IMG/VR virus record: IMGVR_UViG_2778261667_000003
Source of the DNA: a virus
Taxonomy: Duplodnaviria; Heunggongvirae; Uroviricota; Caudoviricetes
Strand: one strand, 5' to 3'
Length of the DNA: 4,132 nucleotides
Positions 519 to 4,132 of this stretch are shown piece by piece (positions within the stretch are counted from its first letter, which is position 1; every line of letters begins with the position of its first letter). The notes below the pieces were generated by a model that worked only from the letters and a program-made list of their open reading frames with translations, ran no database searches and was not told the origin of the DNA. Made by a program: the position numbers and the translations under genes.

Positions 519-598
519 GCACCTTAGAAAAACGGGTGCCGGGATTGGAACCCCGGATAATGTCAAAGGCGACACAGACGCCGAAAGCGTCTTTTTTT
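519..598 (+). ncRNA. Candidate small RNA or processed 3' UTR (about 80 nt) carrying hairpin B with loop AUUGGAAC and ending at an intrinsic terminator
   Basis: Non-coding interval bounded by a possible promoter (483-512) and a strong terminator (576-598). Contains a GC-clamped hairpin whose loop has a YUNR-like UUGG motif. No homolog identified; ends are guesses. Confidence 0.25.
539..556 (+). other. Hairpin B: stem CCGGG/CCCGG (539-543 with 552-556), 8-nt loop ATTGGAAC (544-551)
   Basis: Perfect 5-bp all-GC stem. The loop's 7-nt core TTGGAAC is the reverse complement of the core of the GTTCCAACC boxes at 141-149 and 701-709. Confidence 0.5.
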
Positions 599-603: not shown

Positions 604-684
604 ATGCCATCGCACAGCCATACGTAGCGTTTAGCTCAGAGATCAATGGTAGTGCTGGCTGGGCTGCCGAAAGGCAGGCCGGTT

Positions 685-709
685 CCCTTTGACGCCGGTA
701 GTTCCAACC
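685..709 (+). repeat. Copy 2 of the module CCC-N-TTGAC-N7-GTTCCAACC
   Basis: Direct repeat of 125-149, lying about 75 bp upstream of the Icd-like gene start. Confidence 0.6.
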
Positions 710-724
710 CAGTCAGTGCTACCG
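696..724 (+). other. Hairpin C: stem CGGTAG/CTACCG (696-701 with 719-724), 17-nt loop containing TTCCAACC
   Basis: Perfect 6-bp stem. Its loop is complementary to the loops of hairpins B and B'. Confidence 0.4.
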
Positions 725-728
725 CCAT

Positions 729-744
729 TGAGATTGGAACCTCA
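729..744 (+). other. Hairpin B': stem TGAG/CTCA (729-732 with 741-744), 8-nt loop ATTGGAAC (733-740), identical to the loop of hairpin B
   Basis: Same loop on a different stem sequence, which is covariation-like support for a conserved stem-loop. The stem is only 4 bp, so it is weak alone. Confidence 0.4.
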
Positions 745-783: not shown

Positions 784-999
784 ATGGCTACTATCCCTAC
801 CCCAACTCATTCTGAATTTATCTGGCGTTTCTATTCCTGCCAAAAACACCTCTATATCTGCGTAATGGCTGCTACCGAAGCAGAGGCGCGCTCATACCTT
901 CCCGAAGAACCCTGCATTTTTGCTGCTCGCTTCACCCTTGATGCGATGGAGATCCTCAATTACTGGAATCTGCCGATGAACTGCGTGGAGGTGCACTGA
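784..999 (+). CDS. Small protein, 71 aa, resembling phage P4-type 'host cell division inhibitor Icd-like' proteins
   Basis: Strong RBS AAAGGAGG (768-775) 8 nt upstream of ATG 784. The sequence has FIWRF, ATEAEAR and FAARF motifs that I recall from Icd-like proteins of P4-like prophages; this is recollection, not an alignment. Stop TGA 997-999 overlaps the next ATG (TGATG). Confidence 0.6.
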   Translation: MATIPTPTHSEFIWRFYSCQKHLYICVMAATEAEARSYLPEEPCIFAARFTLDAMEILNYWNLPMNCVEVH

Positions 1000-1622
1000 T
1001 GAATCTGTCCATCTCTCAAAAAGCGACAATGACCAGCATTGAGATCGCGGAACTGGTAGGTAAGCGCCCTGATAACGTTAAACGCACCATTGAACACCTA
1101 GCGGAACGGGGCGTAATATCTTTTCCTCAAATTGAGGAAAAGCCCACCGCAGGCCGCCCGGCGAGCTATTACGTCTTCGAAGGCGAGCAAGGCAAGCGCG
1201 ATAGCATTATTGTCGTCGCGCAGCTCTCTCCGGAATTCACCGCCCGGCTGGTGGACCGCTGGCGCGAACTGGAGAATGCCAGGGGACCGTTAAAATCAAA
1301 AGCCGAAATCCTGGCCGAAATGGCGCAAATGCATCTTGAGCATGAACGCCGGATCAACGCCGTTAATGCCCAGGTAGCCGAAGTATCGGCACAAGTGTCC
1401 AAAGTCGCTGAAACCGTCGAGCAGATCAAGAAAGGCAATATTCCGGAAGGCTACATTGGCTATCGCCAGTTAGCGGCGAAATGCGGCCTGACCGAAGCCA
1501 AATGTCGCAACCTGGTCAACGCTTACCGGATCCCCACCGATACGCATGAGTTTTTAACTCCCGATGGTTTGCTTGCGAGACGCTCCATTGTGGCCCTAGC
1601 CCCCCTTCCGGAAAGCCTTTAA
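999..1622 (+). CDS. Rha-family phage regulatory protein, 207 aa: N-terminal Rha-like domain, central predicted coiled coil, short C-terminal segment with a possible helix-turn-helix
   Basis: GGAGG (987-991) 7 nt upstream of ATG 999. N-terminal SIEIAELVGKRPDNVKRTIEHL matches the conserved core of the phage Rha regulatory domain from memory. Residues around 120-150 (VNAQVAEVSAQVSKVAETVEQIKKG) look like a heptad-type helix, and GYRQLAAKCGLTEAKCRNLVNAY is HTH-like. Stop TAA 1620-1622. Confidence 0.8.
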   Translation: MNLSISQKATMTSIEIAELVGKRPDNVKRTIEHLAERGVISFPQIEEKPTAGRPASYYVFEGEQGKRDSIIVVAQLSPEFTARLVDRWRELENARGPLKSKAEILAEMAQMHLEHERRINAVNAQVAEVSAQVSKVAETVEQIKKGNIPEGYIGYRQLAAKCGLTEAKCRNLVNAYRIPTDTHEFLTPDGLLARRSIVALAPLPESL

Positions 1623-1629
1623 GCAGGTT

Positions 1630-1926
1630 ATGTCGGAGGCCGAACCACGTAATAAACGCTGGTATCATCCAAAAATGGGCCTCTTTCAGGCAATCAACCA
1701 TCCTTTACCGGAACTCCCAAAAGATAATCTGTCACTGCATACAGCCAGAGAGAAGATCAGAAGTGGATATGCAACGGTATGCCGTCGCGCATCATGGTCT
1801 GAAGGTGTATGGGTATGGCCCGAAGGTGGATCAAGAAAGCACTGGCGCACTATCCGGGATGGGAAAATCCATGCTATTGATTTAGCGCCAGAGGATATGG
1901 CTGCTATGGACTGGATTGTTAGTTAA
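1630..1926 (+). CDS. Small hypothetical protein, 98 aa, with a CRRASW ... EDMAAMDW pattern typical of a small phage/bacterial domain of unknown function
   Basis: ATG 1630 lies 8 nt after the Rha stop, suggesting coupling, but the upstream AGCAGG is too close to be a good Shine-Dalgarno. The R-R-x-S-W and DxxAxDW-I/V motifs resemble a DUF family (possibly DUF2829; the number is from memory and uncertain). Stop TAA 1924-1926. Confidence 0.5.
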   Translation: MSEAEPRNKRWYHPKMGLFQAINHPLPELPKDNLSLHTAREKIRSGYATVCRRASWSEGVWVWPEGGSRKHWRTIRDGKIHAIDLAPEDMAAMDWIVS

Positions 1927-1958: not shown

Positions 1959-2061
1959 CTGCTAAATAAATCTGACTCTCCGTGCAATGAAAAGATAGGC
2001 TTGAGCAAGCAATTCCCCGCAGCTATCGTGCAGGGAATGCAGCATCCCTGATTAAAGGGAT

Positions 2062-2454
2062 TTAAAACTCGCCTGCGCGCTGTTTTTCAAGCACAGATTT
2101 AACATTTGGCGCTTTACCTTCAAAAGAATGGAAAGTGCCACATTTTTCTGTCTTCACCTCGCGCAGAGCTTCGCCATCGGCGTTCTGCCATTGATGGGAT
2201 AATGTCATATCACCGCGAGAAGGAACATCAAGCGAGTACTGCGTGTAGGTTCCCCCCATCTCCGCATACTCCTGGAACACATAGCTCATTACGTCAGATT
2301 CAGTTTTCTGATGCGCGTTATCGACCTTATTCCCATTCAGAAATATGGCATCCGGATAGATTTTTATATCAAACTGACCGCACTTAACTTGTAAATTTCC
2401 AGCACTCGCGATCAAAGGGAAAGACGCCAGTAAAGCAATAGCCAATCTTTTCAA
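2062..2454 (-). CDS. Secreted periplasmic protein, 130 aa, with a PliC/MliC-like fold pattern (lysozyme-inhibitor family), two Cys
   Basis: TTG start at 2452-2454 with GGAGG 5 nt upstream on the - strand. N-terminal signal peptide MKRLAIALLASFPLIASA with an ASA cleavage motif. Mature part has one Cys near the N-terminus (KCGQF) and one near the C-terminus (EKCGTF), with a W-x-x-x-D-G-E-A segment reminiscent of the MliC/PliC W-x-K-G-D-E-A motif. The SGSGA inhibitory motif is not evident, so function is uncertain. Stop TAA at 2062-2064. Confidence 0.65.
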   Translation of the reverse strand: MKRLAIALLASFPLIASAGNLQVKCGQFDIKIYPDAIFLNGNKVDNAHQKTESDVMSYVFQEYAEMGGTYTQYSLDVPSRGDMTLSHQWQNADGEALREVKTEKCGTFHSFEGKAPNVKSVLEKQRAGEF

Positions 2455-2474
2455 TTCTGCCTCCGTTGCGTAAC

Positions 2475-3098
2475 TTATTGACCGTGCTTTTTACACCATT
2501 GCTCTGCCATTTGTTTGGCCAAAGGTCCAGCCACTGCACTGTATTCTGCTGTTTTGCTTTGCACACATGATGCAGATGGTTTTTTATTGCGCTGCTCGGT
2601 TAGTTGGCGCTCATAAGCCATCATGCTATCGAACCCGGCAACATCACTCTGGCGAAGCATTCCCTTTTTAACCAAAAATTGCTGCCCCTCGGGCACCAAA
2701 GCAAGCATAAAAAGCGGTTGCAATAACTCACCTAACCCTTGCTGGCGATACACTTCGAATTGCTGCCATCCCTGACTTAATCTGGCAAGAGTATCTTTTG
2801 TTGAATAACCTGTTTTTGTTATAGCTTTGTCCGTCAGATACGCTGTATATGCAAAAACGCAAAAGTCAGATTTACCAATAAACTGAGTTCCAACTGGCCG
2901 TAATGGAATGCCCTCCCTCTTGCAAAAGTCCATAATTGCCGCTTGTGAATGATCCCCACCAGCGTTATTCATAACCTGCTGCCCTGCCCTGAATTGTGCG
3001 GGTAACGCAGTTGCATTGGCCATATTAACAGATACGCATCCCAACATAGCCGCGAGCGCGGTCCCTAAAACCCTTAACTTCACTACACCGTCCTTCAT
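2475..3098 (-). CDS. Predicted lipoprotein/exported protein, 207 aa, function unknown; first gene of a two-gene - strand operon
   Basis: N-terminus MKDGVVKLRVLGTALAAMLGC has a positively charged n-region, a hydrophobic core and a lipobox-like MLGC (Cys 21). ATG 3096-3098 has no clear Shine-Dalgarno; an in-frame GTG at 3081-3083 is preceded by AAGGA at 7 nt, so the true start may be 15 nt downstream. Stop TAA 2475-2477, 20 nt before the next gene's RBS. Confidence 0.7.
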   Translation of the reverse strand: MKDGVVKLRVLGTALAAMLGCVSVNMANATALPAQFRAGQQVMNNAGGDHSQAAIMDFCKREGIPLRPVGTQFIGKSDFCVFAYTAYLTDKAITKTGYSTKDTLARLSQGWQQFEVYRQQGLGELLQPLFMLALVPEGQQFLVKKGMLRQSDVAGFDSMMAYERQLTEQRNKKPSASCVQSKTAEYSAVAGPLAKQMAEQWCKKHGQ

Positions 3099-3311
3099 GT
3101 AAACAAAATGAGGTTTTATGTTATAAAAACTATCAACTACATCAACATGATTTAGGCCAAGTTTCGGTCAAATAATAAAATCCTCAAAAAGTGGTTGACA
3201 CTATTCTGGAAATCACAAACTGCACATAATCCATCGCGCTAACGGCTCCCGTTGAAGGTTCTTTTGACGATTAACTTTCAGCCGAAGCGCGGTAGGGAGT
3301 CACGCCAAAGC

Positions 3312-3336
3312 AGGCCGCCATGTGCGGCCTTTTTTT
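3312..3336 (+). terminator. Strong rho-independent terminator: stem AGGCCGC/GCGGCCT (3312-3318 with 3324-3330), loop CATGT, T-run 3330-3336
   Basis: Perfect 7-bp GC-rich stem followed by 7 T on the + strand. It lies only 27 nt upstream of the ATG of the next gene, with the RBS in between. Confidence 0.75.
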
Positions 3337-3363
3337 GTATCCGTCATCCGTGGAGGAAGGACA

Positions 3364-4017
3364 ATGGAGAAGATAGCAATATTCAGCCTGACCACCAGCA
3401 AACCGCAAATGCTCACTGCAATACTGAAAGACGGCGCTCTCGTGATTAACGAAGTAAAACCCCTTCCCGCGTCAGCATTGGAACAAAAGCAAAAAATTCC
3501 TCCAGCTATAGCAGCCCTGCGGAAAAGCAAATTTAAGGTACTGGTAGACGAAATTACACCAACGATCTCCGCTGGCACCGGAGCAAGCCAGGTGACTCTC
3601 AAGACCCGTCATGCCGATGGTAGAGCAGCAATCATCGTCGGGATGGAAAGATACAGAGAGTTAAAACTCCAGAAACTATTATCCCTGCCGCAAAATAACA
3701 AAGGTGCTTTCGAAATCCCCGACTCTATCGTTGATACCGAATACAACGGTAACGGAGAAGAAGTCTACAGGGTGAACTGGCAGGATATCAGGCCGGAACA
3801 TATTCTGATGATCCTGTGTTGCTACGCGACCGTATACCACAACGTTGCCAGTGCGGATTACGTAGAGCAGATGACCGGTACAGTCGAGAAAGAGCAAAAA
3901 ACAGGCATACTCGCTTCGTTCCTTTCCATTATTGGGCATGAAAAGGTTAAAGCAGGCAGTTCCCAGCCAAAGTCACTGGCTGGGAAAGAAGTTGATGAAG
4001 ATACCGTGATACTTTGA
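3364..4017 (+). CDS. Hypothetical protein, 217 aa, acidic C-terminus, no signal peptide, no recognisable domain
   Basis: Strong RBS GGAGGAAGG (3352-3360) just upstream of ATG 3364. The track's longer version starts at GTG 3322, inside the terminator hairpin, which is implausible. Long open frame with stop TGA 4015-4017. Confidence 0.7.
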   Translation: MEKIAIFSLTTSKPQMLTAILKDGALVINEVKPLPASALEQKQKIPPAIAALRKSKFKVLVDEITPTISAGTGASQVTLKTRHADGRAAIIVGMERYRELKLQKLLSLPQNNKGAFEIPDSIVDTEYNGNGEEVYRVNWQDIRPEHILMILCCYATVYHNVASADYVEQMTGTVEKEQKTGILASFLSIIGHEKVKAGSSQPKSLAGKEVDEDTVIL

Positions 4018-4132
4018 TCACATCAGTAGCTTTGTTAACTCCTTCAATACCAGGTAGAAGAGTAACAAAAACACTGACGTTGACACCTGCTTAGTTAAAG
4101 AAGCACTAATGAATTTATTCAATAAATCAATC

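Follow-up and report, generated by a model that had tools for sequence, protein, structure and literature searches.

Phage P1 carries the genes simA, simB and simC next to c4-icd-ant, with the superimmunity annotation placed on simC and SimB described merely as a "putative accessory" protein. P1 Sim reportedly acts, according to work dating from 1989 and 1990, by exclusion at the periplasmic DNA-entry step. To our knowledge, the mechanism by which it blocks the entry of DNA from the periplasm has not been resolved since about 1990, and we know of few periplasmic exclusion systems. One example is the superinfection-exclusion protein Spackle (Sp) of phage T4, a periplasmic inhibitor of the tail lysozyme gp5.

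Among P1-like phage-plasmids, the sim region is known to vary (PMC9603915), and in a Salmonella D6-like plasmid simB has been described as "substituted by uncharacterized hypothetical proteins", with sit differing as well (PMC6799933). The sit product is a tape measure/injection protein, and the same description hints that the type of gene in the slot may covary with this tail component. Here we describe two neighboring genes, A and B, that occupy the sim slot in a D6-like phage-plasmid. The kind of locus is already known, and the A and B families are uncharacterized; in the literature on P1 sim and Tldi1 we did not meet the A-B fusion or the linkage of A and B to SimB that we report below.

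The sim slot of a D6-like phage-plasmid holds a replacement cassette

The window, by which we mean the whole 4,132-nucleotide stretch of viral DNA that was analyzed (IMG/VR record IMGVR_UViG_2778261667_000003), was identified by nucleotide comparison as part of a D6-like, P1-related phage-plasmid, which specifies the mobile-element surroundings recognized in the initial annotation. E. coli plasmids of ~90 kb are 92–94% identical to the window at the nucleotide level, and phage D6, a P1-related plasmid prophage, is 92–94% identical to it outside the A/B pair. We found that the pair lies on the minus strand between mat and the immI region (c4-icd-ant), in an accessory slot whose content varies. 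To the left of the pair are a C4 antisense RNA (642-729, plus strand; Rfam, 77 bits), an isrK-like sRNA (519-597, plus strand; Rfam, 62.7 bits), icd (784..999) and a split ant, and to the right is mat (3364..4017, plus strand), from which A and B diverge while converging on an ant remnant ORF (1630..1926, plus strand). A second, weaker C4-like element is present at 91-169 on the plus strand (Rfam, 38.6 bits, under the gathering score), and the three RNA elements constitute the immI regulatory region upstream of icd-ant, which is apparently duplicated in part.

Of the two plus-strand ORFs of ant, 999..1622 is collinear with D6 Ant residues 1-212 at 80% identity and 1630..1926 with residues 216-313 at 87%, indicating that ant is frameshifted or interrupted in the window; in the closest plasmid, ant is likewise flagged as partial by RefSeq. 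Upstream of mat there is a structured element at 3233-3336 on the plus strand (fold z-score –2.9) that has no Rfam match and ends in a GGCCGC...GCGGCC hairpin followed by a U7 terminator (3312-3336). It is kept even in an Enterobacter plasmid with diverged flanks and may be an sRNA or a leader.

When we compared the window with D6 by blastn, homology was limited to 27-1998 and 3041-4079, which defines 1999..3040 as a cassette standing in place of the pmgF, orf80 and simB-like genes of D6. The right breakpoint of the cassette falls within the codons of the A signal peptide in the alignment. A pmgF-like gene of ~250 bp is kept between ant and B in the closest plasmid (L001, 9923-10176) and is missing at ~1993-2013 of the window, so the left edge of the cassette is itself variable.

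A and B were confirmed as two minus-strand ORFs separated by a spacer of exactly 20 nt (2455-2474; gttacgcaacGGAGGcagaa). The spacer contains the Shine-Dalgarno sequence of B (GGAGG at 2460..2464, minus strand, by sequence reading), 5 nt before the TTG start, in agreement with the TTG start and good Shine-Dalgarno first assigned to this gene. A and B form a bicistronic operon. A candidate sigma-70-like promoter for the operon lies at 3172..3201 on the minus strand (GTGTCA, an 18-nt spacer and TATTAT); a consensus scan gave one site where 2.4 are expected, which is weak alone, and the DNA around the site is conserved with D6-like plasmids that hold different cargo in the slot. Downstream of B, a hairpin at 2012..2038 on the minus strand (AUUCCCUGCA...UGCGGGGAAU, followed by UUGCUUGCUC) is a candidate weak terminator; the fold of 1925-2064 on this strand has a z-score of –2.7, and the hairpin was not called in a terminator scan of the window. 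A search of the window for P1-type C1 operators found no site.

A and B are small families of exported proteins

Gene A (2475..3098, minus strand) is an ORF of 207 aa from its ATG, or of 202 aa from a GTG at 3083. The GTG (3081-3083) follows AAGGA (3091-3095) at a spacing of 7 nt, giving a probable true start region at 3081..3095 on the minus strand, and no Shine-Dalgarno sequence was seen before the ATG at 3098 when we read the sequence. GTG is also the start in most database clusters, P0001, P0004 and P0006 among them, and in the D6 annotation. For these reasons the GTG at 3083 is more likely than the ATG at 3098 to be the true start of A, and the choice alters only five residues of the signal peptide. 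Gene B (2062..2454, minus strand) starts at TTG and encodes 130 aa, of which ~112 aa remain in the mature protein.

Both products match protein families of phage origin whose function is listed as unknown: PHROG 12786 matches A over its full length (E = 1.5e-130) and PHROG 13864 matches B over its full length (E = 3e-87). Comparison with diverged copies gives dN/dS values of 0.08 (A) and 0.11–0.17 (B); this purifying selection, together with the full-length PHROG matches, indicates that both genes are real. The A family has 22 representatives at E ≤ 0.001 among 1.84 billion proteins, one of which (P0038, a repetitive 572-aa sequence) is probably spurious, and the B family amounts to 20 clusters in 5.8 billion, all of them without Pfam domains or informative names. 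Scans with Pfam, NCBIfam and PADLOC gave nothing above noise for A, B, the fusions and the distant homologs described below, nor for P1 SimB, P1 SimC and the D6 proteins. Searches of PDB sequences with the A and B profiles gave zero matches each at E ≤ 10, and tblastn of A against a phage collection gave no match. These searches bear out the initial view that A contains no recognizable domain and show A and B to be two very small families with no relative of known function detectable at the sequence level.

A had been annotated as a lipoprotein, and its features point both ways. The signal peptide is present (residues 1-29; 3012..3098, minus strand), and this allele does carry the sequence MLGC; the "lipobox" Cys21, however, sits inside the signal peptide, passes only a permissive PROSITE-style lipobox rule and is variable among homologs: P0002, P0003 and P0007 have Gly in its place, and the homologs from Enterobacter, IncF, Vibrio and metagenomic sources lack it. 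What is kept across the A family is the AxA signal-peptidase I site (ANA in the window, with cleavage before T) and the (A/P)LP(A/P) sequence that follows it (ALPA in the window). Lipidation therefore does not appear to be a feature of the A family, and the window allele may be lipid-anchored. Four Cys residues are conserved in the family (C59, C80, C178 and C202). The family-invariant residues are C59, C80, G97, Y98, S99, T103, P128, G138 and D152, which include no Glu and no His; the sequence S99-x-x-D102 lies at the start of a predicted helix. AF2 on a shallow alignment predicts an all-alpha protein (pLDDT ~85 from residue 50, confident in one of five runs), and for A we could identify neither a matching fold nor catalytic residues conserved in the family.

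By sequence reading, the signal peptide of B spans 2401..2454 on the minus strand and is cleaved between MKRLAIALLASFPLIASA and GN. C25 and C105 are invariant, and the conserved motifs are YAEMGG(T/S)YT and W-x-(N/D)-A-D. The W-x-x-x-D-G-E-A segment of the initial annotation is present as W89-Q-N-A-D-G-E-A96, as are the two Cys residues, and the SGSGA motif is missing, as it had noted. AF2 (shallow alignment) predicts a small beta-barrel with nine strands and a C-terminal helix (pLDDT 84). The Sec signal peptides and the conserved Cys pairs in both products indicate that A and B act in the periplasm.

A and B form a single functional unit

To define how A and B are arranged, we compared the loci that carry them. 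A lies directly upstream of B in the window and in other loci (L001, L014-L022 and L026-L039), where A is 57–97% and B 86–97% identical to the window proteins, the identity of A falling to 57% where B is still 86% identical. Across the window, L001, L014-L022 and L026-L040, every B of the window type (at least 86% identity) and every B domain of the fusion type (68%) has A either directly upstream or fused to it. A Vibrio parahaemolyticus conjugative plasmid shows this order too, with an A of 31% identity ahead of a frameshifted B. Enterobacter phage-plasmids have in the slot a single ORF of 277 aa (P0024; L004, 4937-5770), in which residues 3-169 resemble A (38% identity) and residues 164-276 resemble mature B (68% identity). 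L040 also carries an A-B fusion, and a further, distantly related lineage of fusions comprises P0026, L041 and P0041, the last of them truncated. The fusions omit the B signal peptide exactly at the predicted cleavage site, together with the last ~45 residues of A, and their B domain begins at ANLAVEC. Each gene also occurs alone: A without B is present on an IncF plasmid beside an IS and in L013, and B without A is present in Citrobacter phage-plasmids.

Since A precedes B in diverged elements as well and the two genes are fused in two lineages, A and B are a single functional unit, a coupling stronger than first proposed.

Many of the copies that we found are damaged, with frameshifted or truncated A or B genes in P0008, P0009, P0014-P0020, P0043 and P0048, in L014, L016 and L020, and at 4008-4426 of L024. 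The cassette is dispensable and decays often, as accessory cargo would. Across phage-plasmid lineages, A diverges much faster than B (57–66% identity for A where B is 86–93% identical), and A has two alternative C-terminal tails, which points to mosaic recombination, or to A being under diversifying pressure. We asked whether the tail type of A matches its partner, B or a SimB-like protein, and rejected this, as the same tail type pairs with both.

The A-B cassette is linked to SimB-like genes

In D6 and many of its relatives, the slot holds a SimB-like gene encoding an exported protein of ~275 aa, the N-domain of which is 49–52% identical to P1 SimB. The annotated N-terminus of this D6 protein (MKDGAVKLRVLGTALAAK) equals the first 17 codons of A and lies behind identical upstream DNA. 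This relic of A (L002, phage D6, 8590-8649, minus strand), with its breakpoint after GCGGCTA, is found also in L006 and L007 and is a deletion scar in front of the SimB-like gene, the real start of the D6 protein probably being an internal signal peptide that begins MFFIKNGK. The two kinds of cargo also occur side by side. In pS143-4 and in a metagenomic phage-plasmid, A is followed by a SimB-like gene; in two independent contigs, a 106-aa SimB homolog directly precedes an A-B fusion. In all, SimB homologs flank A or the A-B fusion in four elements other than D6.

In an all-against-all BLASTP comparison, A and B had no match to SimA, SimB, SimC or the D6 SimB-like protein. Comparison of A or B with SimC by hhalign gave probabilities of 0.4–0.6%, and hhalign of A and B against the D6 SimB-like protein showed no remote homology.

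A-B as a candidate exclusion module

From this context, we propose that A-B serves the sim locus as a binding module without catalytic activity and protects the lysogen envelope, most likely through superinfection exclusion at periplasmic DNA entry, a reading to which we give a probability of about 0.45. We favor binding instead of catalysis because no catalytic signature is conserved. A-B would be another cargo that the P1/D6 sim (superimmunity) locus can carry, and the prophage would produce it to guard the lysogen's envelope. Its most likely mode of action would be to intercept a component that a related incoming phage exposes to the periplasm, and the effect would be superinfection exclusion at the DNA-entry step, as with P1 Sim. 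The B barrel would serve as the binding module and A as its partner or scaffold, possibly tethered by a lipid in the window allele. The setting, the export signals, the coupling of A and B, the linkage to SimB and the purifying selection on both genes all argue for this proposal. Against it, neither A nor B can be connected to exclusion by homology, PADLOC gave no match, and the Sim protein found beside them is SimB and not SimC, the one annotated for superimmunity; the promoter call is weak and the window has no P1-type C1 operator, such that expression in the lysogen is only predicted; and a subfamily of B found beside T6SS modules (described below) points to another kind of target.

A broader form of this proposal, which we regard as doubtful, is that A-B is a two-component (sometimes single-chain) periplasmic exclusion/immunity system with two new folds, and that phage-plasmids would shuffle A and B, along with SimB, SimC and the C-terminal domain of the D6 protein, in a combinatorial "Sim network". 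The B barrel would then trap a protein that arrives from outside and acts in the periplasm, for example the injection transglycosylase or the tape-measure protein (Sit) of a superinfecting P1/D6-type phage, and the target of the Hcp-linked B subfamily would be a T6SS peptidoglycan effector. If this were true, one protein family would serve both anti-phage and anti-competitor defense.

Alternative readings of the A-B pair

A-B could instead be a lysogenic-conversion ("moron") module unrelated to defense, either a periplasmic ligand-binding or sensing heterodimer or an envelope-fitness factor, which we consider unlikely. In a sensing module of this kind, the barrel and its operon partner would bind a small hydrophobic molecule, like the periplasmic domains of VtrA/VtrC and ToxR/ToxS. 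VtrC and ToxS are lipocalin-like periplasmic barrels whose partner is encoded by the gene upstream, which recalls the arrangement of A and B; however, they superpose only weakly on B, at 2–9% identity, and their partner is a membrane-bound transcription factor, whereas A is a soluble or lipidated helical protein.

Immunity to a competitor's peptidoglycan effector, of the T6SS Tlde1 type or similar, is a reading suggested by the surroundings of a divergent B subfamily, with B as a Tldi-like orphan immunity barrel and A as a second immunity or accessory subunit. The subfamily (P0044, P0046 and P0048) has a signal peptide and is related to B at 30% identity (profile E = 1.5e-10). On a P1-like contig, a divergent B gene lies 3 nt upstream of a gene with a Tlde1_dom, followed by a gene for a ~90-aa membrane protein and then by Hcp. 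The order of B, with or without the transmembrane protein gene, and Hcp recurs on a second plasmid, and a truncated B copy lies beside Hcp in an Enterobacter fur-ybfN chromosomal island (the coordinates of divergent B beside these modules are L047, 3501-5211; L057, 3435-4731; and L054-L056, 3501-4393). Salmonella Tldi1 is a 138-aa, Sec-exported, strand-rich periplasmic protein (PMC13478106), and Tldi1, which gives immunity to the L,D-transpeptidase-like T6SS effector Tlde1, is by this description similar to B in size, Sec export and strand content. In contrast, the closest Tlde1-TM-Hcp module, from Pantoea (70–73% identity), has no B gene, indicating that the conserved companion of Tlde1 is the small membrane protein and not B; the idea of B as the fixed immunity partner of Tlde1 is weakened by the same observation. 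T6SS immunity proteins adjoin their cognate effector, which is true of the divergent B subfamily but not of the window-type pair, as no T6SS gene was found near the pair in any D6-like element. T6SS immunity would also leave A and the association with SimB unexplained, and we consider it distinctly unlikely as the function of the pair. Nevertheless, the recurrence of the subfamily beside T6SS Hcp and Tlde1 leaves some probability with an immunity role and hints at a shared way to neutralize foreign periplasmic proteins.

The initial annotation had suggested an enzyme/inhibitor or toxin/immunity module, with A as a periplasmic enzyme or toxin (e.g., a peptidoglycan hydrolase) and B as its cognate inhibitor or immunity protein. 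A tight two-gene operon of two exported proteins and the conserved co-occurrence of A and B would fit such a module, but A has no recognizable catalytic fold or catalytic residues. The survival of A in the absence of B and the joining of A and B in a single polypeptide in two lineages are not the pattern expected of a toxin and its antidote, and we judge this reading very improbable.

The weakest reading, with hardly any probability left to it, is the proposed PliC/MliC resemblance, by which B would be a divergent MliC/PliC lysozyme inhibitor protecting the lysogen from c-type lysozyme: B and MliC/PliC (PF09864) are both small exported disulfide-containing antiparallel beta-barrels of ~100 residues, with Cys near the first and last strands, and the W-x-x-x-D-G-E-A of B superficially recalls the W-x-K-G-D/E-E-A of MliC, but only this architecture class is common to them, given that B had no PF09864 match in a Pfam hmmscan at E ≤ 1, that hhalign of the B alignment against E. 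coli MliC, P. aeruginosa MliC and the PliC of 4mir (sequences from PDB entries 2f09, 3f6z and 4mir) gave a probability of 0.3%, that the S(G/A)SGA(K/R)Y inhibitory loop, which enters the active site of lysozyme, is absent from B and all B homologs, and that B had no specific structural match to MliC/PliC, the closest structure to B not being their eight-stranded barrel.

Significance and comparison with known systems

Taken together, these data show that different cassettes of exported proteins can take one another's place in the sim slot of P1/D6-type phage-plasmids. A and B are two tiny uncharacterized families, and their natural fusions mark them as one unit, making the pair a defined, cloneable candidate for exclusion. 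Clinical and livestock E. coli and Salmonella commonly harbor such phage-plasmids, which carry resistance genes, so the rules that govern their co-infection bear on their spread.

For the proposed role of A-B in superinfection exclusion, T4 Spackle is a conceptual analog only, as a small exported phage-encoded protein that neutralizes a periplasm-exposed component of an incoming phage. Among the closest described systems is the P1 sim locus with its D6 SimB-like counterpart. A and B differ from it in that sequence and profile comparisons link them neither to SimA, SimB or SimC nor to the C-terminal domain of the D6 protein. In contrast, the feature by which a protein would be grouped with P1 Sim, export of a product encoded in the sim slot, was found for both A and B. 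The loci share the kind of element that carries them, their neighborhood beside c4-icd-ant and near the tail genes 26/25, the Sec-dependent export of their products, and a slot that is variable and non-essential.
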